This document shows positions 6,342-60,304 of a stretch of DNA of 64,000 nucleotides, one piece after another. The notes below the pieces were generated by a model. That model worked only from the letters and a program-made list of their open reading frames with translations, was not told the DNA's origin and ran no database searches. Numbering within the stretch: position 1 is the stretch's first letter; each line of letters starts with the position of its first letter. This stretch comes from Mustelus asterias. Lineage: Eukaryota. The stretch covers positions 77,996,001-78,060,000 of the forward strand of contig NC_135806.1 in assembly GCF_964213995.1 (NCBI RefSeq), read 5' to 3'. A program made the position numbers and the translations under genes.

Positions 6342-7408
6342 CTATAATCATACAATTAAAGGTTAATTTTCAACACCTGAAGCATTCTGTAGTTATAAAA
6401 CAAAACTACTGTCTTTTGAAAGACATGTGGCAGCAAATGTGCTTCAGTAGCTGATTTTAGACTTTTGTTGATGCTCAAGGTTCACCTGGATGGCTTTAGA
6501 GGCTTCATATTAGTCTACTGGCAAATAACATCAAGGAATAGAAGGACGTATCCTGTTTTTTTTCAGCAAACACTCCTAGGATAGAACATTTTTTGGAGTC
6601 TGCGCTATTTTTCAAACAAGAAACTAATTGATGAGTTAGAATGTTAAACCTTGAAAAGAAACATGTCAGGTTACTGAACAGAGATATTCAAGATGCTTAA
6701 TGAGATACAGAAAGTAAACCAGAAAGTAATACTTTGAAATACTTAAGGGCAACAAGATAAGACCGAATAGGTTCGGAGCATGTAATTGGGGGAGCTGCGA
6801 AGTAACATCTTTACAAAGAATGTGAATAACACCTGACAAGATGCTAGGAAGAGTGGTTAAGGCATGAACTCATTTAACAAATTAAATGCAGTGTTAAAAA
6901 CACAATGAACTATGCACAATGAGAATAAAGGACTCAGAGAGTTTCATCCAAAACTATTGTGTTCTACCCATTCTGAAACTGACAACTGGAAGTGCAGCTC
7001 AGGAAGATTCTCCCGCATCTTTTCTCATTCCTTGTCAGGAGAAAAACCTAACATTCAGAAACTACATAGATGGATGAGCAAAATTCTGGAACAAATCCAG
7101 CCGATACTATATTTTAGGGTATAATCTACATTTCTGTCAATTCTTACATTAATATTAAATTGTACTCTGGATCACAGAGGTGGTTAGAAGAACACTTCCT
7201 CTGCCTATCTCACTTATCAGCTCTAGTATTTTGGAGGGTCTAAGGGGCATCCCAAATTCCATGTAAAACACCATTTATAGTTTCAGTGGGACCAAAATCT
7301 GCTGGCAGCAGACTGGGGGCCTTTTCTGGGCCCAGAGAAAGCCACAACACTAAAAATGGAAACAGGAATCAATCCTAGAATTCTGACTCCCCTTGGCATT
7401 GCAATAAG

Positions 7409-8078
7409 ATGTGGAGATGCCGGCGTTGGACTGGGGTAAGCACAGTAAGAAGTCTCACAACACCAGGTTAAAGTCCAACAGGTTTATTTGGCAGCACTAG
7501 CTTTCGGAGTCTCAAGCTCCTTCATCAGGTGAGTGAGGACTTGTGTTCACAAAAAGGGCATATAAAGACACAAATTCAATTTACAAGATAATGGCTGGAA
7601 TGCGAGTCTTTACAGGTAATCAAGTCTCAAAGGTACAGACAATGTGAGTGGAGAGAGGGCCAAGCACAGGTTAAAGAGATGTGTATTGTCTCCAGCCAGG
7701 ACAGTTAGTGAGATTTTGCAAGCCCAGGCAAGTCGTGGGGGTTACAGATAGAGTGACATGAACCCAAGATCCCGGTTGAGGCCGTCCTCATGTGTGCGGA
7801 ACTTGCAAAATCTCACTAACTGTCCTGGCTGGAGACAATACACATCTCTTTAACCTGTGCTTGGCCCTCTCTCCACTCACATTGTATGTACCTTTAAGAC
7901 TTGATTACCTGTAAAGACTCGCATTCCAACCATTATCTTGGAAATTGAGTTTGTGTTTTTATATGCCTTGTTTGTGAACACAAGTCCTCACTCACCTGAT
8001 GAAGGAGCTTGAGACTCCGAAAGCTAGTGCTGCCAGATAAACCTGTTGGACTTTAACTTGGTGTTGTGAGACTTCTTA
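7409..8078. mobile_element. Fold-back Penelope-like element derivative A (inverted pLTRs)
   Basis: Arms 7445-7722 and 7802-8079. The spacer is the antisense GIY-YIG C-terminus (KFRTHEDGLNRDLGFMSLYL*), matching ~50826-50888. TSD CATTGCAA(T/C)AAG. Confidence 0.88.
7495..7531 (-). ncRNA. Minimal hammerhead ribozyme motif (left arm of A). The mirror copy is at 7993-8029(+).
   Basis: cac-CUGAUGA-a-ggag/cucc-GAAA-gc-UA-gug: catalytic core, stems I and II, and a palindromic AGCU stem III. Activity untested. Confidence 0.75.
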
Positions 8079-8166
8079 CATTGCAACAAGTACAGGCATC
8101 CTCCCAGAATAATAAAGTGATTTCCTCCATAGTATTTGAGAGGAAGCCAGTACAGGTAAAGATAAT

Positions 8167-9118: not shown

Positions 9119-10028
9119 TTTGATTTAAATATATGCGAGCCACAAATTGATCAGTTGAGCTGTCTTTTCTAGGTGATACATTTCATTTTGTGACAATAAT
9201 GAGGTGCCCAACCATACATTCAAGGTGATCCATGAAAAGCTCAAGTACTTAAACGCTAACTTTAACTTGTACTGTATTATCAAAACTGCATTGAATCAAG
9301 GAATAAGGGTAATGTAACAGCAAATGGAAGATCAACACAAACTGGTCACTGAGTGATAAGTTGGCAAACTTACAATTCTCCATTACATTGAGCTCATAAT
9401 CTCAGCAATGTCAATGCAAGGAACAAAATGAGAAAATATAAATGTAATTCCTCACATTGAAAAAGGGAAAAATCAGAGGGAAATGTTGAATTGTTCCAAA
9501 TGGTAAAGGTCCAGATATAAGGTGGTGAATGATTTAGCAAAATCAGAGGATAAAAAAGGAGAAAATTAAAAGATATGCATTCGAAAAACAGTGGATGGAG
9601 AGGGGCAGGAGACACAATTGGGATCAGTATCTAAAGTAAAGTTTATTTATTAGTCACAAGTAAGGTTTATATTAACATTGCAATGAAGTTACTGTGAAAT
9701 TCCCCTACCCACTGTTTATCCATAAATTCACTATATACACCTGCAACATCATGCTCTTTTGGTGCTGACAGTGGTAGAGTATATGCTCCAGCCTAATAGA
9801 AAGAAAACCAAACTTATTTTAAAATACAATGGTGAGGAAGAAAGATACTTTGTCGTACAGATTTGCTCCATTTCCCAAATTTACCATAAGACCATAAGAA
9901 ATAGGAATAGAAATAGGCTGATCGACCCCTCAAGCCTGCTCCGCCATTCAATAGGATTATGGCTGATTCAACATTCCTCAGGTGTACTGTTCATGCAGCA
10001 TTCACTGGTTAATTCTCATGCAACCTAC

Positions 10029-18247: not shown

Positions 18248-18565
18248 GATCCTTTTATGAGCAGGAATAATTTCTCTATATCTATTCTGTCCAGCCTCCT
18301 CATGATTTTAAACATCTATCAAATCTTCATTTAGCCTTCTTCCTAGGAGAACAGTCCCAACTTTTCCAATCTATCCTCATAACGGAAATGTCTCATCCCT
18401 GGAACAAGTTTTATAAAGCTCCTCTGCAGCCTCTCTAATGTGTTCATATCCTGCTTATACTGTGGTGTCCAGAACTCTACTCAATACTCCAGCTTGGTCT
18501 AACCAGTATCTTGTAGAAGTTCAAAATAACCTTTTTGTTCCTGTACTATGTCCCTATTAATAACG

Positions 18566-18987
18566 ATGTGGAGATGCCGGCGTTGGACTGGGGTAAGCAC
18601 AGTAAGAAGTCTCACAACACCAGGTTAAAGTCCAACAGGTTTATTTGGTAGCAAATACCATAAGCTTTCGGAGCGCTGCCCCTTCGTCAGATGGAGTGAA
18701 AATCTGTTCTCCAACAGTGCACAGAGACACCACATCAAGTTACAGAATACTAATTAGAATGCAAATCTCTACAGCCAGCCAGGTCTTAAAGGTTGTACCT
18801 TTAAGACCTGGCTGGCTGTAGAGATTTGCATTCTAATTAGTATTCTGTAACTTGATGTTGTGTCTCTGTGCACTGTTGGAGAACAGATTTTCACTCCATC
18901 TGACGAAGGGGCAGCGCTCCGAAAGCTTATGGTATTTGCTACCAAATAAACCTGTTGGACTTTAACCTGGTGTTGTGAGACTTCTTA
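18566..18987. mobile_element. Fold-back Penelope-like element derivative B (near-perfect palindrome)
   Basis: Arms 18602-18793 and 18797-18988 with a 3-nt loop. TSD CCCTATTAATAACG. Hammerhead motifs at 18658-18694(-) and 18896-18932(+). Confidence 0.88.
18658..18694 (-). ncRNA. Minimal hammerhead ribozyme motif (left arm of B). The mirror copy is at 18896-18932(+).
   Basis: ccau-CUGACGA-a-ggggc/gcucc-GAAA-gc-UU-augg. Stem I covaries relative to element A. Confidence 0.72.
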
Positions 18988-20395
18988 CCCTATTAATAAC
19001 GCCCAGGATACTGTATGCTTCATTAACTGCTCTCTCTCTCTGTTCATTAATTGCTGTCCTGCTACCTTCAATAATCAATGAACATATATGTTCTTGTACC
19101 GCCTTAAGAATTCTGTATGTAAATATATTTTTTCTATTGTCTCAAATTTGATCTTTGATTTCCAAATTGCCCTTCACTCAAACTCTCCTCTCCCTCTGTT
19201 AGTTTTTGCCATTTCTCCCTGCTCTGGTCATGGTTGCTCATGCATCCTTATGTTTGTATGCTGTAAAGCCTAGTTAAACGATTAGCCAGCATACTGGTCC
19301 CAACATGGTTCTGGTGTAGACCATCTAGCGGTCATTACCTTTGTGGTTCTGCTTTTTAAATTTAGGCCCTCACTGTTCATACACTTCTCAGAAGAACTTC
19401 TTTGGGGTGTGTGCATGTGCGTGCTTGTGCGCGTTCGGGCACGTGTGGTGTGCACGCGCTGAGTACACAGACCAGTACAGCACAGGATCAGGCCCTTCGG
19501 CCCTCCAAGCCTGCGCCAATCATGATATTGCCTAAACTAAACCCGTATGCACTTCCATGTCCATCCTATTCATGTATTCATCTAGATGCCCCTTAAATGC
19601 CGTTATCGTACCTGCTCCCACCGCCTCCTCGAGCAGTGCATTCCAGACATTCACCACCCACTCTGTAAAAAACTTGCCTTGCACATCTCCTCCAAACTTT
19701 TCCCCACGCACCTTAAACTTATGTCCCCTAGTACTTGACTTTTCTACCCTAGGAAAGAGCACCTGATTATTCACTCTATCCATGCCATTCATAATCTTGA
19801 AGACTTCTATCAGGTCGCCCCTCAACCTCCATCGTTCCAGTGAGAACAAACTGAGTTTATCCAACCTCTCCTCATAGCTAATACCCTCCAGACCAGGCAA
19901 CATCCTGGTAAACCTCTTCTGTACCCTCTCCAAAGCATCCACTACCCTTCTGGTAGTGTGGCGACCAGAATTGTACAATATTCCAAATGAGGCCTGACTA
20001 AGGTTCTGTACAGCTGCAGCATGACTTGCCAATTTTTATGCTCAATGCCCTGACCAATGAAGGCAAGCATGCCATATGCCTTCTTGACTACTTCATCCAC
20101 CTGCATTGCCACTTTCAGTGATTGGTGGACATGTACACCCAGATCTCTCTGCCTGTCAATATTCCTAAGGGTTCTACCATTTACTGTATAATTCCTATAT
20201 GCATTGGACCTTCCAAAATGCATTACCTCACATTTGTCCAGATTAAACTCCATCTGTCATTTCTCCACCCAAGTCTCCAATCAGTTTATGTCTTGCTGTA
20301 TCTTTGGATAATTCTCCTCACTATCCACAACTCCACTACCTTTGTGTCATCTGCGAACTTATTAATCAGACCAACTACATTTTCTTCCAAATCAT

Positions 20396-24523: not shown

Positions 24524-24645
24524 TCATTTATATATAACACGAACAACAAAGGTCCCAGAACTGATCCCTGTGGAACATCGCTAGTCACAGCCTTCCATTC
24601 AGAAAAGCACCCCTCTACTGCTACCCTCTGTCTTCTATTTCTAAG

Positions 24646-24747
24646 TAAGAAGTCTCACAACACCAGGTTAAAGTCCAACAGGTTTATTTGGTAGCAAATA
24701 CCATAAGCTTTCGGAGCGTGCTGCTCCTTCGTCAGATGGAGTGGTTA
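24646..24747 (-). mobile_element. ~100-bp Penelope pLTR fragment consisting mostly of a hammerhead motif (24701-24739)
   Basis: Nearly identical to the arm of element B. Flanked by TCTATTTC(T/C)AAG repeats inside the host CR1. Confidence 0.82.
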
Positions 24748-27242
24748 TCTATTTCCAAGCCAGTTCTGTATCCATCTTGCCAGCTCTCTTCTGATCCCAT
24801 GTGACTTCACCTTTCGTACCAGTCTACCATGAGGTACCTTGTCAAAGGTTTTACTGAAGTCCATGTATATAACATCCACTGGCTTTCCCTCAGCTATCAT
24901 CTTCATCATTTCCTCGAAAAACTCGATCATGTTAGTGAGACACAACCTCCCCTTCACAAAACCATGCAGTCTATCACTAATAAGTCTATTTGTTTCCAAA
25001 TGTGAGTAAATCCTGTCCCTAAGAATCTTTTCCAATAATTTCCCTACCACTGACGTAAAGCTCACCAGCCTATAATTTCCTGGATTATCCCTGCTGCCCT
25101 TCTTAAACAACGGAACAACATTGGCTATTCTCCAGTCCTCTGGAACTTCACCTGTAGCCAATGAGGATACAAAGATTTCTGTCAAGATCCCAGCAATTTC
25201 TGCCCTTGCCTCCCTCAGTATTCTGGGGTAGATCCCATCAGGCCCCGGGGACTTATCTACTTGAATGTGTTTTAAGACGGCCATCACCTCCTCCTTTTTG
25301 ATATCAACATGACCCAGAATATCTACACACTCTACCATAGCTCCTCATCCACTAAGTCTTTCTCTTTGGTGAATACTGAGGCAAAGTAGTCATTTAGTAT
25401 TTCGCCCATTTCCTCTGGTTCCATGCATAGATTCCCTCCACTATCCTTTCCCTGGCTACCCTCTTGCTCTTTACATATGTATAAAATGCCTTAGGATTTT
25501 CCTTAATCCTGTTTGCCAAGGACTTTTCATGACCCATTTTAGCCCTCCTATCTCCTTCCTTAAGTTCCTTCCTACATTCTTTATATTCTTCAAGGGTTTG
25601 GGGTACAGGTGATGGTGGTTGAGAAGAGAGAGGAAGAATCGGATGTTGGTCAAAGAAAGTAATGTAGCCAACAGACTGTAGGGCTTGGGGAAGGGGTCTA
25701 ACGAGTAGCTTGTTGGGTCAGAAGGAAGCACTCATTCTCCTCCTGTCTCAAAGCAATGCAGTAAAGGCACGCATCTTATGAATTCAGTCGTTCTTACTAC
25801 ATCTCAGCTGCTGGGTTTCATCGAAGCATAGCTTACACAACGTAAAAATCAAACCATTGTTAAACTAAAGGCCTTATTATCATATGAAAAATTGAAAAGC
25901 TGCTTTTCACACGTGGACTGATCACTTGCCCCTTAAGACCAGGAATGGGCAGATAGTAGTCCTGACAATATTCCCTCTAAGTTGCATGGATGTGTGACAA
26001 ATCACACAAAGATCTTTGATAAGGATCCATGTAATAGCCTATTGAATAATGTCAGAGCATGAAGAATGGGACAATATAGAATAGAATAGATAGCTATCCA
26101 CTGAGAGAAGAGAATAGGGGTATAGAGTAACTATTCAGAACTGCATAACATGGAAAGTGAATGGATCACATGGATCAGTGCTGGGACTGCTGTTGCTCAC
26201 AATTTATGTTAATAATTTTGACTTGGAGAGATACACAATTTCTAAATTTTCAGAAGATGCCAAATTATTGTCAGGGGCAGGATAATCAATAATGAGGAAG
26301 AATGCAACAAATTAAATGTTAATGAGCATACAAAATGGACATATAATTGACAAATTAATTTTAATATAGATCAGCGACGTATTACATTTTGGTATCTTCT
26401 GCAATTCTGAACAGTTACTCTTTACCCCTACTCTCTCCTATCAGTATTTCAGCCAGAAAACTATCCATTCTGATACTTGTCCCAATTCCTCATTAGGCTA
26501 TTACGTGGAAACAGTTCAGAACCCTTTTGTAAGCTACATTTACTCTATTATGCTTGTCTGTCATCTGTTACCTCTTCAAAAAGTCAATGAGGTAGATCAA
26601 GCAAGACTTTCTCTTTTGAAATATGTGCTGACTATTCATTATTATATTTTTGGTTTCCATATGTGTTTATATTTTTTTCTTTAATAGGAATTCCATTTTC
26701 TTTTCACGTTAAGTTGACTTGTCTTTCATCCCCTGGATATGTTCTATTTCTCTTCATAAATATAAGTAGAATGTCAGCCCTCTGGAACTGCACCTTTTTC
26801 TAATGAATTACCAAATGTGTAATAGTGCCTTTTCTTTCTCTTCCCTAGTGCCTTTTAAAAGGCATGGATGTAATCCAACCAAATCAGGGGCTTTATCTTC
26901 CTTGAGTTTGATTTGTTAATTTAATTTTTCTCCTCTTCAGTTGAAATTGTAATATAATTTCTAATTTCATCTTCCATCTCCTTGGTAAATACAGAAGCAA
27001 AATAATTACTCAATATTTCTGTTGTTTCACTACGACTGCCTGAGATTCTATCCTGGCTGTCCTTTAGTGGTGCTATTCCCATTCAAACTTTCCTTTCTTT
27101 ATTTTTGTGTGTAGAATACCTCACCATTTTGTTTTATGTTCCTTCATAAATGAAGTTCATAGTTCCTGTTTATTTTCTTCCTAATTTCTCTCTATTATTT
27201 CTTGCCATGCTCTCCCCTGCTGCCCATGTACAAATTATATAT

Positions 27243-27385
27243 AAGCAAATTACTGCCGATGCTGGAATCTGAATTTGAAACAAAAACAGGAAATGCTGGA
27301 AAACCTCAGTAGGTCTGACAGCATCTGTGGAGAGAGAACAGAGTTACTGTTTTGAGTCTGGATGACCCATCAATTGAAGAGCTCT
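27243..27385 (-). mobile_element. Decayed pLTR fragment of a second Penelope-like family
   Basis: Homologous to 60064-60198. The hammerhead core is degenerate. A related fragment lies at ~16496-16575(+). Confidence 0.55.
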
Positions 27386-28833: not shown

Positions 28834-29064
28834 AAAGTCTCTATCAAGCTTCTTTCCTCAATTCTTATTCTCTCATAGAAATCATAGATTCCTTAACTCT
28901 CAAAAATTAGCATCTGCGTGCCTCTACTGATCTCTTAGTCATCAAGGTTGCCTTCCTAGTGCTAGGGCTATTTACACCTGATCTTATCTAGATGTCTGCT
29001 ATTCTTGTTACTGGGATAAAGGAAGCATCTCATCATCTTCTTTGAATGTTGGCTATAGCTGTCG

Positions 29065-31713
29065 CACAACACCAGGTTAAAGTCCCACAGGTTTATTTGG
29101 TAGCAAAAGCCACTAGCTTTCAGAGCGCTTGCTGCTCCTTCGTCAGGTGAGTGGGAGTTCTGTTCACAAACAGGGCATACAAAGACACAAACTCAATTTA
29201 CATAGAACAGTACAGCACAGAACAGGCCCTTCGGCCCACGATGTTGTGCCGAGCTTTATCTGAAACCAAGATCAAGCTATCCCACTCCCTATCATCCTGG
29301 TGTGCTCCATGTGCCTATCCAATAACCGCTTAAATGTTTCTAAAGTGTCTGACTCCACTATCACTGCAGGCAGTCCATTCCACACCCCAACCACTCTCTG
29401 CGTAAAGAACCTACCTCTGATATCCGTCCTGTATCTCCCACCACGAACCCTATAGTTATGCCCCCTTGTAATAGCTCCATCCACCCGAGGAAATAGTCTT
29501 TGAACGTTCACTCTATCTATCCCCTTCATCATTTTATACACCTCTATCAAGTCTCCCCTCAGCCTCCTCCGCTCCAGAGAGAACAGCCCTAGCTCCTTCA
29601 ACCTTTCCTCATATGACCTACCCTCCAAACCAGGCAGCATCCTGGTAAATCTCCTCTGCACTCTTTCCAGCGCTTCCACATCCTTCTTATAGTGAGGTGA
29701 CCAGAACTGCACACAATATTCCAAATGTGGTCTCACCAAGGTCCTGTACAGTTGCAGCATAACCCCACGGCTCTTAAACTCCAACCCCCTGTTAATAAAA
29801 GCTAACACACTATAGGCCTTCTTCACAGCTCTATCCACTTGACTGGCAACCTTTAGAGATCTGTGGATATGGACCCCAAGATCTCTCTGTTCCTCCACAG
29901 TCTTCAGAACCCTACCTTTGACCCTGTAATCCACATTTAAATTAGTCCTACCAAAATGAATCACCTCACATTTATCAGGGTTAAACTCCATTTGCCATTT
30001 TTCAGCCCAGCTTTGCATCCTATCTATGTCTCTTTGCAGCCTACAACAGCCCTCCACCTCATCCACTACTCCACCAATCTTGGTGTCATCAGCAAATTTA
30101 CTGATCCACCCTTCAGCCCCCTCCTCTAAGTCATTAATAAAAATCACAAAGAGCAGAGGACCAAGCACTGATCCCTGCGGCACACCGCTAGCAACCTGCC
30201 TCCAATCCGAAAATTTTCCATCGACCACCACCCTCTGTCTTCGGTCAGACAGCCAGTTACCTATCCAATCGGCCAACTTTCCCTCTATCCCACACCTCCT
30301 CACTTTCATCATAAGCCGACCATGGGGGACCTTATCAAACGCCTTACTAAAATCCATGTATATGACATCAACTGCCCTACCTTCATCAACACACTTAGTT
30401 ACCTCCTCAAAAAATTCTATCAAATTTGTGAGGCACGACTTGCCCTTCACGAATCCGTGCTGACTATCTCGGATTAATCCGCATCTTTCTAAATGGTCGT
30501 AAATCCCATCCCTAAGGACCCTTTCCATCAATTTACCAACCACCGAAGTAAGACTAACCGGTCTATAATTACCAGGGTCATTTCTATTCCCTTTCTTAAA
30601 CAGAGGAACAACATTCGCCATTCTCCAGTCCTCTGGCACCATCCCCGTGGACAGCGAGGACCCAAAGATCAACGCCAAAGGCTCTGCAATCTCATCCCTT
30701 GCCTCCCACAGAATCCTAGGATACATTTCATCAGGCCCAGGGGACTTATCGACCTTCAGTTTATTCAAAACTGCCAAGACATCCTCCCTCCGAACATCTA
30801 TTTCCTCCAGCCTATTAGCCTGTAACACCTTCTCTTCCTCAAAAACATGGCCCCTCTCCTTGGTGAACACTGAAGAAAAGTATTCATTCATCACCTCGCC
30901 TATCTCTACTGACTCCATACACAAGTTCCCACTACTGTCCTTGACCGGCCCTAACCTCACCCTGGTCATTCTTTTATTCCTCACATAAGAGTAAAAAGCC
31001 TTGGGGTTTTCCTTGATCCGACCCGCCAAGGACTTCTCATGTCCCCTCCTAGCTCTCCTAAGCCCCTTTTTCAGCTCATTCCTTGCTAACTTGTAACCCT
31101 CAATCGAGCCATCTGAACCTTGTTTCCTCATCCCTACATAAGCTTCCCTCTTCCTTTTCACAAGACATTCCACCTCTTTTGTGAACCATGGTTCCCTCAC
31201 TCGGCCATTTCCTCACTGCCTGACAGGAACATACCTATCAAGGACATCCAGTATTTGTTCCTTGAAAAAGTTCCACTTTTCATTAGTTCCTTTCTCTGAC
31301 AGTTTCTGTTCCCAACTTATGCCCCCTAATTCTTGCCTAATCGCATCATAATTTGCAAGACCCCCACCCCCCCCCCCCCCCCCCCCCCCCGGACTTGCAA
31401 AATCTCACTAACTGTCCTGTCTGGAGACAATACACATCTCTTTAATCTGTGCTTAACGCTCCCTCCATTCACATTGTCTGTACCTTTGAGACTTGATTAC
31501 CTGTAAAGACTCGCATTTCAACCAAATGATTTTGTAACTTGAGTTTGTGTCTTTGTATGCCCTGTTTGTGAACAGAACTCCCACTCACCTGACGAAGGAG
31601 CAGCGCTCTGAAAGCTAGTGGCTTTTGCTATCAAATAAACCTGTTGGACTTTAACCTGGTGTTGTGAGACTTCTTACTGTGTTTACCCCAGTCCAACGCT
31701 GGCACCTCCACAT
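29065..31713. mobile_element. Fold-back Penelope-like derivative C, interrupted by a CR1
   Basis: Left arm 29065-29200, poly-C spacer, right arm and tail 31393-31713. TSD TATAGCTGTC. Hammerhead motifs at 29111-29149(-) and 31586-31620(+). Confidence 0.85.
29201..31351 (-). mobile_element. Young 5'-truncated CR1 LINE with an uninterrupted 642-aa ORF2 (RT) segment
   Basis: ORF 29272..31200 contains all RT motifs ([25 protein letters not shown]) followed by the 3'UTR and GTTCTATG tail. Confidence 0.96.
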
Positions 31714-34700
31714 TATAGCTGTCACCAGACATATTCTCCCCCGATGCTGGGTAGATTACACATTATCACTCCCTTTATTAATTCTGGGTCCTGCTGTTAC
31801 CAGGCAAATCCATTACATTATCTTAAATCATACTGGTCACTACAGCCTAGATATTCACCTACTTTTCAATTCCCATTACTAGATCCAGCAGCAAATCCTT
31901 CCTTGAAGGAATTCTTACATATTGAGTTGGAATAGAGTCCTATACAAATTATAAGTGCACCATAGCCTTATTCCATTTACACAGCCCTGCTGGATAATGA
32001 ATTCCAGGCTGTTTGAAATTCCCCTAAAATTATCTTGTGTTTTTTTTAAAACTTATTTTCCTAATTTGGATGCACATTTCTTGCTCTACCATTCTTTCAC
32101 TATTAGGTGTTTTATACTCCACTCCTATTAGTAGGATTGATTTTTATCATTTTTTTTCTTCACATGCTATCTATTTTAGTCTTACTAATAGCTGTGTCAC
32201 TTATTTCTTCTGTTATTATTTCCATTAAATCATTTCTATTTTTCTTTTCTGAAGTTGCATGTCCTGCAATATTTAGTTCCCAGGTTTAACTTTTCTGTGG
32301 CCATATCTCAGTAATCTTTACTGTATCTGCTTCATCACAATGTATCATTGTCTTGGATTCTCCTATTTTATTGCAGATATTGTATGCATTGCTGTAGATA
32401 GTTTAACTCATTCTTAATGGCAGTTCCTCCTACTTTATTTTTAACCTTTTTTTGATTCCTGTTCTATAACTATTATTTCCCTGGTAATTTTTGTTGAGCC
32501 TTCTGTTGATTGATAAGAGATCTTAGATGCATCGCAGCTAAACATTTGCAACCTTTAGGCTAATGGTTGCCTGGAGTGGAAAAGGCAATGCTGATAAGAA
32601 ATGTAAGTCTACTGATGTAAAACAAGTTAAGAGATAACATTGTTTCCATACAAATCATCAGTCAGGCCTCCATCTGGAGCAGATCGTGCAGATCTGGTTA
32701 CCTAACTAAAAGTGTACTCTTGCTTTCAAGGGAGCACAAAGACATGAAACCAGAATCATTGTGGCAACAGAATCAAATCAAGAAAGGTTAAAGAAATTGG
32801 GCTTGTTTTCTTTGTAAAAAGAGTTCTGAATGACTTGAACAGTCAAGATTATGAAAAGGATTAGCAAAATGAAACCCAGCAAATTGTTCAAAATTGTAAA
32901 AGGTTCAAATATTGGTGACACAAGTTAAAAATGAGGAAGTTCAAAACAACTTCCTGTTCACAAGTCAGGTTGTTGAGTGCTGAGTCTTCATTTTGGGACC
33001 AAAATGAATCATGGAAAAATACAATATCCTGGCTTTACCCAAGTTTATTTATTTAAAAAGTGGACCTTGCTGAACCAAATGATGGCTGCAACATGATTCA
33101 CAAGTTGGCCAGAGTTTCCATAAATTTCTAACAGCATTGACAGGATAAAAGTTCAACTCTCATTCTTGTGGAATCTCATTATGAGGATACATTACAATCA
33201 AAGAGATCAGGGGCCAGCAGACAACTTGTTTCGATAACAAAGGGAGAGGCATTGAACCTTATTAAACCTGCAGAGGTGTTCAAAGTCACCATCTATCTCC
33301 CACGATAAACAATGGATTTTGACCAGAGGCACAAAAACTGCTCGTTAGCCTGCAACTGTCTAATTAATGGGCCACATCACATGACTGGCCTTTGCAAAGT
33401 TTTAATGTTCCAGACTCACAACTGAGTCTGCTATTTAAACTCAAGCCTGCAACAGTAAAGCAGGACTCCAGGCTGACCAACAGCCTGCATCAAGACTACA
33501 TTCCTTCCATTGCCCGCTGAACAGACTGAGTCTCCGGATGCCAACCTAATTTTGCTGTATCACCATCAACTTTAAAGGAATTCTGCAAAGTCCTCTTTCA
33601 GCTAGCTAAACTGTTGCTCCTCCGTGAAAGAACCCTCACTGGACTTTTATTTTCTGCACTCTGGCAATCCAGTGAAATGATAACCATATCTTTCTATAGT
33701 GCTTTTTCTTTTAATTTACTCATAGGTGCAAAAACTCCTCTTTTCTCTCTTCTCATTGTGTGCGTGTATATGAAGTTGCAACCATTCCCCAGGTTTGAAT
33801 GTGTGAATAAACTTTACTTCTGAATTAACCTGAAAGTAAGTTTGAGAGAAAATAAAAGAGTTCAGTTTTGTCCAGGAATTGTGGCAATTTGAGCTTAAGT
33901 GAGCTACATGTGGAAATACATTTGGTGAAATCTTCTATCCCCCAGGAGTCAAGGAAGAAAATGGGAGGGCCTGAAAATTAGGTTGATGTGTGGGCCAATA
34001 CCCAACGCCTTCTTACCTCTTCTGGAAGTGTCGGGTTTTCCTTCCTTTAAGGAAGGAAATCTGCTTTTCTTACCTGGTCTGTCCTACATGCGTCCCCAGA
34101 GCCACAGCAATGTGATTAACTCACAACCACCCTCAGCCAGCAACGCCCATGTGCCACGAATGAATTTTTAAAAAGTAACTTCTGGATGGGAAGGTTCATG
34201 GTCAATTTTCTTGATTTGCTTCAATTCAAAGCCTTTAATGGGACAGGGGGTGGCCACCGACAGCCACCTCCTGCCCTTGCTGCTCACCCCCATGGCCCCC
34301 TCCACCCTGCGAGACCCAGATATGGGATGGGGAGGAGGGGGGGTGGGTAAGAGAGGTCTAATTCCATTTCTCACCACTGTATAGTTGACTCATTACTAAC
34401 ATTTTACTGAATATTTAAGGAACTATCTCACTGGAGCAATCAGACATATCCATCAAATGTCAAGGAAACTGTATTTCAATCACTGTTGAAACTTTAAAAA
34501 CATTATCACCAAGGTAAATAGTTAATCAATTTTGATAAGTGCATATTTTGAAATTAATGTTGATATGACAGGATTCAATATGCAATTACATGCTGCCACA
34601 GAATCTATTGAACAATTACTATCTAAAACAAAGCAGAACACCATATCCAACTCATTAACTTATTTCAGCTGTGTACTACATATCAATTCAAAATCTATTT

Positions 34701-36429: not shown

Positions 36430-37307
36430 CAGCAAAGAAATCTGTCCTTCTTTGACTATATTTAAAATGCTTTTAATGTTTTTTGCTTCATCACTGGTCT
36501 CTCCAGGTCGTCCCATACTAATCCCATTTTTATTGCTGTTTCCTTCTTCTAGCTTGCTTTCTTTTGGGTTTTGCAGAGACAATGTCCTTGGTCGAGAGTT
36601 TGGCACAGTACCACCAACCTTCTGTCCATGTGAATTAACAAACAAACTTGAAGTTCTGCTGGTCAAATTTTTACCCTCCACTTCAGCATTCTGTATTGTA
36701 TCACAGCCATCTGTTGATTGGGAGTTCTCTAAGCTGCCAGGTACATGTCTATGATGGTTTGTGACAACTGCTTTAGCTTTTTTTAACTCCAAGCTATTTA
36801 CTGGTGACAGAATACAAAACTGTGTCAAGTTGGTTGGCGAGTTCCCATGCTTCACTGTTGAACAGATCCTGCTGCCATCATCGCTCATTTCCATGCCTGA
36901 CTGATTCTCTGAGGCAACTTTTGTTAAAGGGCTACATCTCTGAGAAGGAAAGTGGTTTAATTTAATATAAGGCACATCCAAAATTTCATCCATATCCAAA
37001 TCATAGTGCTCAAGTTCACCAAGCAAAGTGCTGCTGCCAGTGTCTTTGATCTTAAAACACTGTCCATTGTTGTGACACAAAGTATTACGATCACTTGGAT
37101 TTTCAGCATCATCTTGCTTTTTGTAGTCATCTTTGAGTTCATGCTGTTCAATATCTCTATCACTTTCAGTGTTTTCTGGTTGGTGCTTTAGAGGTGAAAC
37201 TCTTTTCACAGGTCTGAATTTGCTGTACACATCTGTGGTGCCTTTGGCTTTTATTCCACTGGTAATTGATGATGATGTACCTCCAGAAGGCCAGTTTGAA
37301 CTAGAAA
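36430..37307 (-). CDS. SNCAIP: Synphilin-1 large third coding exon (VSSSNW...DVYSKFRPVKRVSPLKHQPE...ELEHYDLDMDEILDVPYIK...SILNIVKEGQISLL)
   Basis: 878-nt open frame that overlaps ORF 36286..37230. AG at 37309-37308 and GTAAGT donor at 36429. Contains diagnostic synphilin-1 motifs. Confidence 0.96.
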
Positions 37308-40282: not shown

Positions 40283-40349
40283 ATGATGTGGAGATGCCGG
40301 CGTTGGACTGGGGTAAACACAGTAAGAAGTCTAACAACACCAGGTTAAA
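40283..40349 (-). mobile_element. Terminal fragment of the Penelope pLTR family
   Basis: Matches 7408-7473 and 18565-18630. Confidence 0.75.
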
Positions 40350-40933
40350 GGAGGGATCATAATTAATGAACAGGCTTGATTTCAATCCTGTGGTCCACTG
40401 CAACCTAGGTTGTCCATTACTGGTCTACATTTTACATGCAATTTTATATCTAACTTCTTTATATGTAACTAAAACCAATGAAAAGACTAGCTTTCAATAA
40501 TTCTTCTATTTTAATTGATTAACCATTGTCAGCTAGCCAAAGTATTGTAGAAAAGAACACCAATAATACGTTAAAATATTTTGCATTGGGCAGGTGTGTC
40601 ATTGCACAAATGTCTTTAAGTACATGAATTAAAATAACCATTAAACCACTTTGTTTTATCACGAGAAAAGGCCACTCAAGTATCTAATCCCCAATATATC
40701 TTCACATAAGCTCTAAATGTCTTCCAAAATGCCATGCAATGTGGATAATGTTGATCATTGAGAATGTGCATGATGATGTCCTACCAGAAGTTTCAACGAC
40801 ACAGAGTTTTGCAACTAAAGCTGGGATTTTCCAGCCTACCCACAGCGGGTTTTCCGATGATGAAGGTGGCTTGCCATTGGTTGCTGGTGGGATCTTCTGG
40901 TCCCACCAGCTTTATAAGTCAATGGCCATTGAT

Positions 40934-41221
40934 GGATGGAGCTATTACAAGGGGGCATAACTATAGGGTTCATGGTGGGAGATATAGGAAGGATATCAGA
41001 GGTAGGTTCTTTACGCAGAGAGTGGTTGGGGTGTGGAATGGACTGCCTGCAGTGATAGTGGAGTCAGACACTTTAGGAACATTTAAGCGGTTATTGGATA
41101 GGCACATGGAGCACACCAGGATGATAGGGAGTGGGATAGCTTGATCTTGGTTTCAGATAAAGCTCGGCACAACATCGTGGGCCGAAGGGCCTGTTCTGTG
41201 CTGTACTGTTCTATGTTCTAT
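40934..41221 (+). mobile_element. Short 3' fragment of the young CR1 family, inserted in a MITE-like element (~40820-41287)
   Basis: Near-identical to the 3' end of 29201-31351 (..DGAITRGHNYRV..RMIGSGIA*). Confidence 0.9.
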
Positions 41222-49801: not shown

Positions 49802-50985
49802 ATTAGATACATCGATGACATTTTCTTCCTTTGGACTCACGGTGAACAATCACTGAAACAACTATATGATGACATCAATAAGCTCCATCGCACCATCAGA
49901 CTCACCATGGACTACTCTCCAAAATCGGTTGCATTCTTGGACACACGCATCTCCATCAAGGACGGTCACCTCAGCACTTCACTCTTCTGCAAGCCCACGG
50001 ATAACCTCATGATGCTCCACTTCTCCAGCTTCCATCCTAAACACGTTAAAGAAGCCATCCCCGACGGACAAGCCCTCCGTATACACAGGATCTGCTCAGA
50101 TGCGGAGGATCGCAACTGACACCTACAGACGCTGAAAGGCGCCCTTGTAAGAACAGGATATGGCGTTCGACTCATCGATCAACAGTTCCGACGTGCCACA
50201 GCGAAAAACTGCACCGACCTCCTCAGAAGACAAACACGGGACACGGCAGACAAAGTACCCTTCGTCGTCCAGTACTTCCCTGGAGCGGAGAAGCTACGAC
50301 ATCTTCTCCGGAGCCTTCACATGTCATCGGTGAAGACGAACATCTCGACAAGGCCATCCCCACATCACCACTACTTGCCTTCAAACAACCGCTCAACCTC
50401 AAACAGACCATTGTCTGCAGCAAACTATCCAGCCTTCAGGAGAACAGTGACCACAACACCACACAACCCTGCCATAGCAACCTCTGCAAGATGTGCCGGA
50501 TCATCGAAACGGATGCCATCATCTCACATGAGAACACCATCCACCAGGTACACGGTACATATTCTTGCAACTCGGCCAATGTTGTCTATCTGATACGCTG
50601 CAGGAAAGGATGTCCTGAGGCATGGTACATTGGCGAGACCATGCAGACGCTACGACATTGGATGAATGGACACCACTTGACAATCACCAGGCAGGAGTGT
50701 TCCCTTCCTGTTGGGGAACACTTCAGTAGTCAAGGGCGTTCAGCCTCTGATCTTCGGGTAAGCGTTTCCAAGGCGGCCTTCAAGACGCACAACAACGCAG
50801 AATCGCCAAGCAGAAACTGATAGCCAAGTTCCGCACACATGAGGACGGCCTCAACTGGGATCTTGGGTTCATGTCACACTATCTGTAACCCCCACAGATT
50901 GCCTCGGCTTGCAAAATCTCACTAACTGTCCTGGCTTGAGACAATTCACACCTCTTTAACCTGTACTTAACCCTCTCTCCACTTG
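49802..50985 (+). mobile_element. Penelope-like element fragment (RT C-terminal half, Cys-rich linker, GIY-YIG endonuclease, start of pLTR), Neptune-like
   Basis: RYIDDIF, FLDTRI, CKPTD, HPKH, PCHSNLCKMCR and NVVYLIRC..WYIGET..R..GH motifs, ending GLNWDLGF. Frameshifts and stops present. Confidence 0.92.
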
Positions 50986-59873: not shown

Positions 59874-60063
59874 AGTAATAAAAAAATATTTTTATACTCC
59901 ACTCCCTTTGTAATAGGTTTAATATACCATTTGATTTTCTAATTGGTGCTGTATCTGCTATATTATCTTTGTGATTTGTGTACAAAGACATTCGGATCCC
60001 TCACAATTTATTAAAAATCTGTTTTCCTATTTTCCTACCAAAGTTTGTAACTTCACATAAGAT

Positions 60064-60198
60064 AAAAGCAAAATACTGCAAATGCTGGAATCTGAAACAA
60101 AATAGAAAATGTTGGAAAATCTCAGCAGGTCTGACACTATCTATGGAGAGAAAATCGAGCCAACGTTTCGAATCAGAATGACTCTTCGTCAGAGTTCT
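60064..60198 (-). mobile_element. pLTR fragment of a second Penelope-like family with a hammerhead motif (~60156-60197)
   Basis: CUGACGA-a-gaguc/gauuc-GAAA-CGU-U with palindromic ACGU. Stem I is imperfect. Confidence 0.62.
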
Positions 60199-60304
60199 AC
60201 ACAAAAAGAAAGTAGCTAAAATAAATATTGGTCCCTTAGAAGCAGAGGCAGGAGAAATTATCATGCTGCATGAGGAAATGGCAGAGGCATTGAACAAACA
60301 TGTT

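Follow-up and report, generated by a model that had tools for sequence, protein, structure and literature searches.

Three insertions, A, B and C, found in SNCAIP introns within a 64,000-nt stretch of Mustelus asterias DNA (the window), are very probably independent, truncated insertions of a highly abundant Neptune/Nematis-type Penelope-like element (PLE), each of which likely arose when the two cut strands of the target primed reverse transcription at RNA sites ~35 nt apart and the two copies were joined in the centre. On a wider reading, over which the evidence leaves us evenly divided, the quarter-million insertions of this family are a fossil record of a dimeric RT-endonuclease that primes both strands at two fixed sites of one RNA, and of a hammerhead that cuts a share of the templates in vivo. 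The mirror-image layout of A, B and C and their hammerhead are in themselves already published PLE features.

As the original prediction had it, A, B and C are TSD-flanked insertions with inverted arms, the 3' ends of the element pointing outward, and in 3/3 a single unpaired tail is present on one side only. The features of the window are as follows.

57753-57697, 47956-47885, 37308-36430 (the largest), 10208-10014 and 6341-6228, minus strand: five SNCAIP exon matches
7409-8078: insertion A, a fold-back with arms 96% complementary; TSD of 12 bp with 1 mismatch at 7397-7408 and 8079-8090
7409-7444, minus strand: unpaired 3' tail of A
7409-7805, minus strand: tailed arm of A, with the final ~27 codons of the GIY-YIG ORF, the pLTR and the tail
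7494-7532, minus strand: minimal hammerhead of A in SNCAIP sense, predicted cut 7498/7497
7802-8078, plus strand: tail-less arm of A, with 4-nt microhomology to the tailed arm at 7802-7805
7992-8030, plus strand: minimal hammerhead of A on the other strand, predicted cut 8026/8027
18566-18987: insertion B, arms 99% complementary; exact TSD of 14 bp at 18552-18565 and 18988-19001
18566-18793, minus strand, and 18794-18987, plus strand: tailed and tail-less arms of B
18658-18694, minus strand, and 18896-18932, plus strand: hammerheads of B
24644-24748, minus strand: copy D, a single tail-less arm; 11-bp TSD-like repeat at 24635-24645 and 24749-24759
24701-24739, minus strand: intact hammerhead of D in SNCAIP sense, with no partner arm of its own
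about 29065-31713: insertion C; TSD of 10 bp at 29054-29063 and 31714-31723
from 29065, minus strand, and ending at 31713, plus strand: tail-less and tailed arms of C, the tail at the right-hand end
29110-29150, minus strand, and 31585-31621, plus strand: hammerheads of C
29203-31349, minus strand: RT-encoding LINE fragment (Pfam RVT_1) of ~2.1 kb, nested in the left arm of C
40286-40350, minus strand: copy E, a 65-nt stub with the tail and without the hammerhead; no TSD seen by eye
49804-50983, plus strand: ORF remnant of the parent element, with the C-terminal part of the RT, linker and GIY-YIG in three frames and the start of a pLTR

Copies D and E were absent from the original list and bring the window to five insertions. 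The largest SNCAIP exon has 100% identity to the NCBI-named synphilin-1 protein of Mustelus asterias, and A to E and the ORF remnant are all placed between exon matches, A between those at 10014 and 6341, and B and C between those at 36430 and 10208, which bears out the predicted intronic location. Sequencing contigs aligned on A have loose ends at 7408 and 7442-7444, in an alignment swamped by paralogues. The LINE fragment inside C, bracketed by near-identical 8-mers (29195-29202 and 31350-31357), is likely a later insertion; it belongs to a young CR1-like family, has a 646-aa open frame and is 96% identical over 301 nt to a copy at 40916-41216.

The parent element can be recognised from its coding remains. 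The remnant at 49804-50983, from which hammerhead and tail are absent, has 79-87% amino-acid identity to a 490-aa frame in copy L153; Pfam detected no domain in the broken Penelope ORF pieces of the window, and in the L153 frame it finds RVT_1 (E 4.6e-10) followed by a C-terminal GIY-YIG match (E 0.001) that at 19.7 bits falls short of the Pfam cut-off of 22.6. Two cysteines lie between GIY and YIG in L153 (CCHH motif, VYLIRCRKGCPEAWYIGET) and the linker that joins RT to EN, CHSNLCKMC, fits CX2-5CxxC, both of which are given as defining features of Neptune/Nematis-type EN+ PLEs in passages of PMC8557442; by these motif definitions the family is of that type. A pLTR with hammerhead, partial tandems, an inverted copy and a one-sided tail are all present. 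What separates the arms of A is, as had been noticed, the ORF at 50825-50983 in its antisense end (92% over 159 nt; tblastn match 7810-7748). The Penelope origin is upheld. In four copies with tandem tail-to-ORF junctions (L168, L099, L054 and L196) the ATG of the ORF directly follows the tail, and the tail is therefore the last piece of the 5' leader.

In a random sample of 120 evenly spaced 10-kb stretches (1.2 Mb) there are 89 insertions, which scales to ~270,000 genome-wide; 48 are fold-backs, 20 of them with both arms spanning the hammerhead, and 41 are not. Among 162 abutting arm pairs 139 are tail-out, one is tail-in and 22 lie on the same strand, and once the tail-out pairs are freed of 13 that lie at the edge of a locus and of 33 whose 3' end is damaged, 93 fold-backs remain for counting tails. 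Exactly one tail is found in 88/93, two in 3/93 and none in 2/93; in sets chosen independently of the tail the figure is 55/59 (p = 1.7e-12 against 50%), and further copies follow the same rule (46/47 and 23/24, with four damaged ones dropped). The rare two-tail fold-backs are L018, L099 and L168, two of which adjoin a long element in tandem or have no TSD. Another irregular copy, L297, has a tailed arm with a head-to-tail duplication of the 5' part of the hammerhead, ending in AGC just before the cut.

A TSD of at least 11 bp (11-16 bp) flanks 58/93 fold-backs, compared with 0/300 swapped-flank controls, and was not found in the other 35. The outer ends are tightly placed, the tail end within -3 to +2 of the last base of the tail and the tail-less end between -30 and -44, and no strong target-site consensus was seen. 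Microhomology to the target averages 1.7 nt at the tail-less end (n = 52) and 1.5 nt at the tail end (n = 58) against a null of 0.64, a null that was built for the tail-less end only and with a TSD search that permits shifts. The tail of A (window 7409-7490, minus strand) is predicted to form a long stem-loop with a segment 40 nt upstream (GUUGGACU/AGUCCAAC), with a fold z of only -1.7; the tail-less end coincides with the 3' foot of the apical hairpin in this predicted structure, which is weak against shuffles throughout (z -1.6 to -1.7).

The two arms of a fold-back are closely related, with a mean divergence of 3.3% (maximum 7.7%) compared with a median of 15% to other copies (41 pairs), and both arms belong to one subfamily in 41/41; the partner arm is the closest or tied copy in only 24/41 pairs, which fits one template or two of the same subfamily. 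At the centres are found overlaps of 1-8 nt or short inserts, several of which are copied from nearby sequence. Such overlaps and short inserts are what is expected of microhomology-mediated end joining.

These junctions point to a likely series of steps. The endonuclease would make a staggered double cut; a first primer would start at the tail end, just before the ATG of the ORF, and a second ~35 nt upstream, after which microhomology-mediated end joining would connect the two cDNA ends. For roughly one fold-back in three, the two cDNAs would have ended at a shared template position, likely a single RNA 5' end. Priming twice, with each strand and each RNA site used once, would account for both the inverted pLTR and the one-sided tail. 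This two-strand model is likely, as read from the junctions that the process left behind and not from any intermediate or enzyme.

The lengths of the arms bear on how the inversion was made. Among the 88 one-tailed fold-backs, 26 have the longer arm on the tailed side and 30 on the tail-less side, the latter exceeding its partner by up to 1.4 kb, whilst 32 are symmetric within 12 nt, compared with 4.8 in shuffles (maximum 14). If instead a single cDNA, or an antisense template, had snapped back on itself and been copied back, symmetric centres would be in excess, as indeed they are (14/88 within 3 nt against 1.4 expected), and centres would recur at palindromes such as AGATCT and AGCT, which they do; self-priming of this kind has been argued for rotifer Penelopes in passages of Arkhipova et al. 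2013 (PMC3846280). Copy-back cannot, however, yield a tail-less arm that is longer than the tailed one, as is seen in those 30, and the tail-less end has the target microhomology of a primed end. Self-priming is therefore unlikely as the general source, although it could explain part of the symmetric class.

It would seem still less probable, indeed very improbable, that the fold-back is a non-autonomous element which replicates as a unit in the manner of a retrozyme or MITE, an idea to which tiny fold-backs in their thousands (one pattern has 5,987) and the identity of some centres lend a certain appeal. An arm-end pattern has 2,083 exact matches genome-wide, and among the 100 of these that were listed there are at least 18 opposite-strand pairs, all with different spacings (61-3,601 nt). 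In the 88 one-tailed fold-backs inner breakpoints are spread from -36 to -2,597, and both agree within 3 nt in only six pairs, all with arms below 135 nt and with different junction letters, and arm lengths grade continuously from less than 50 nt up to 2.9 kb into the ORF. The palindromic AGATCT centre does recur (306 matches), but in the 25 copies fetched of the 50 listed the TSDs and tail-less ends differ, and centres that are asymmetric are found either way round with respect to the tail (L290 and L291, or L281/L282 and L283); the best reading is that joining took place repeatedly at a self-complementary site. A replicating fold-back family had been offered in the original prediction; since breakpoints and centres differ, so that the copies have inversion points of their own, it is largely refuted for the sampled copies. 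The shark fold-backs resemble the non-LTR retrozymes in passages of Li et al. (bioRxiv 10.64898/2026.07.22.740005) in being non-coding, hammerhead-bearing and PLE-derived, but those are head-to-tail tandem units with tandem hammerheads, whereas the fold-backs are head-to-head, with variable breakpoints, graded length and no fixed shared unit.

Priming from both target strands thus remains the preferred origin, and it has parallels. In L1 twin priming a second primer comes from the other target strand and produces an inversion with a microhomology join, the second primer landing upstream so that nothing is duplicated. The shark element would likewise use a second-strand primer and a microhomology join, but with both primers near the same 3' end, so that this end is duplicated as a palindrome.

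EN+ PLE insertions as described in passages of Arkhipova 2013 (PMC3846280) and Craig 2021 (PMC8557442) are alike in their head-to-head inverted arms, single 30-40-bp tail, TSD, heavy 5' truncation and C-terminal GIY-YIG. In those passages, unlike here, the tail is optional and self-priming or resolution by a nuclease is favoured; the shark family has ~270,000 copies, follows the one-tail rule almost strictly and has junctions of the primed type at its two ends. The nearest biochemical parallel is the Poseidon element PAc of Anolis (Frangieh 2024, PMC11167929), the protein of which cuts and extends both strands, with RT starting at two sites that bound the tail and with a predicted dimer. PAc differs in that its ORF begins within the hammerhead and includes the tail, whereas in the shark family the tail ends just before the ATG; set beside PAc, the shark family also has 1-2 nt of target microhomology at both ends. 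The main text of PMC11167929 does not derive inverted insertions from two-strand priming. Furthermore, in the full-text literature open without subscription, supplements and key older papers aside, no paper gives two-strand priming as the source of inverted PLE ends, and none reports a genomic excess of 5' ends at the hammerhead cut. Passages of PMC8557442, PMC11167929 and PMC4209133 pose as open the integration of PLEs, inverted ends with a one-sided tail and in vivo cutting by minimal hammerheads. Counts at the level of a whole family make two of these questions testable, the two-strand origin of the inverted arm and cleavage in vivo; in the shark family the counts separate integration models, and two exact priming sites and a cut site can be named for bench tests.

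The hammerhead itself has the core CUGANGA..GAAA-GCU-H in 6/6 arms of A, B and C, stem I having 3-4 bp and stem II 4-5 bp, and the minimal, dimer-type form with a palindromic AGCU stem III that was originally proposed is borne out. Among 245 intact motifs stem I has 3-4 bp in 232, stem II 4-6 bp in 234 and stem III is AGCU in 237. At the first pair of stem I, 148 have C-G, 86 U-A and three G-U, and eight are unpaired there, so the predicted covariation between subfamilies is there; at the sequence level it is one inherited compensatory change, and it points to selection in the source elements. The minimal type I hammerheads in passages of PMC4209133 are alike in their type I core, extra base after A9, short stem I, palindromic stem III and covarying families, and pairs on opposite strands 100-700 bp apart are already described there; sharks are not named in those passages, and no genomic 5'-end excess at the cut is given. 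An Rfam scan detected no hammerhead up to E = 5, the monomers fold no more stably than shuffled sequence (z +0.3 to +0.5), and a dimer fold is possible but, at -11.5 to -21.9 kcal/mol, lies far above the minimum predicted (-25 to -28 kcal/mol).

A hammerhead is present on both strands because both arms copy the same 3' end. The original prediction went further and proposed that sense hammerheads in SNCAIP pre-mRNA are masked by their own antisense arm, and that this arm is transcribed first. For A the first part stands as a prediction, the fold being fully paired with the sense hammerhead hidden (MFE -527.8 kcal/mol, z -49), but D carries an intact sense hammerhead with no antisense arm of its own; the order of transcription is true here but is not specific, since it holds on either strand for any tail-out fold-back. 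The masking modelled for A is likewise what the geometry gives for either strand, and any masking within host pre-mRNA would be a side effect.

That the inserts form a selected self-masking ribozyme or dsRNA module regulating SNCAIP is highly improbable, even with the full masking predicted for A and with three double-hammerhead fold-backs in the 64-kb window where 1.07 are expected (p = 0.09, not significant). There is no excess of insertions, five being observed against 4.7 expected by chance; D is without a masking arm of its own and a LINE splits the arms of C. Among 115 inserted arms sampled without regard to the motif, changes are seen in 2.9% of core positions (37/1,265) and 2.5% of control positions (73/2,875; p = 0.46), the cores decaying like control sequence. 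With centres that differ between copies and cores that decay like the control, there is neither a replicating fold-back unit nor a sign of a selected masking module, and this part of the original prediction is not supported. Nothing special was found about SNCAIP itself, and the insertions are ordinary at this locus. Incidental editing of dsRNA from such inserts is plausible and would not demonstrate function. As judged from its sequence, the hammerhead is an inherited pLTR motif, apparently selected in the source elements and decaying in inserted copies.

The 5' ends of the arms carry a possible trace of hammerhead cleavage. They were marked genome-wide, in one subfamily group, by a match to 24 fixed letters followed by two mismatches upstream. 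At the predicted cut (0/-1) there are 1,222 such ends, compared with 378 at -3/-4, 366 at -5/-6 and, as a raw count, 223 at the foot of stem II. On the other side, 1,310 ends at +3/+4 are as high as at the cut, about three in ten of the listed matches there coming from a local palindrome, and 881 lie at +21/+22 in a pool about twice as large. Expressed as rates, with denominators from the random sample of only 27-61 matches each, this is 1.4% at the cut, 0.44% at both -3/-4 and -5/-6, 1.4% at +3/+4 and 0.47% at +21/+22. By eye, 13 of 100 listed cut-site matches belong to an uncut GTGTGG variant, and variants or deletions may account for as many as 33, a correction from these 100 that shrinks 1,222 to about 820 and leaves an excess of at least two-fold. 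A bigger group of 5' ends is found upstream of the cut, at a distance of 29-38 nt. In the fetched arms, where counts are small, 14 ends fall in the seven positions from 0 to +6 and five in the eight positions upstream, and in 50 listed of the 5,987 tiny fold-backs 12/100 arms end at 0 and 30/100 at +4/+5.

RT stalling at the strongest stem was considered as a cause of the excess and rejected, there being no peak at the foot of stem II (223 ends); pausing at stem I or III may contribute. The sharp drop 5' of the cut and the missing stem II peak agree with a few percent of templates being cleaved and then trimmed slightly, and on these end counts it is rather more probable than otherwise that a small share of templates is cut by the hammerhead in vivo before being copied. 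In the anole PLE no RNA-seq reads start at the cut, and cleavage is unneeded for insertion in vitro (Frangieh et al., PMC11167929).

A separate group of arms (L100, L160, L200 and L205), all of one subfamily with C at the cleavage position, starts exactly at ACTCACC, six bases before CUGA. GG precedes each of these four and is lacking in long copies, and the GG and ACTCACC start may mark a capped transcription start.

Finally, the window holds an unrelated second repeat end with a hammerhead, CUGACGA..GAAACGUU, at 60051-60210 (core at 60192, minus strand) and at 27231-27366. It has 42 matches in the 1.2-Mb random sample, several of them as inverted pairs, and is likely to represent another Penelope-like family.
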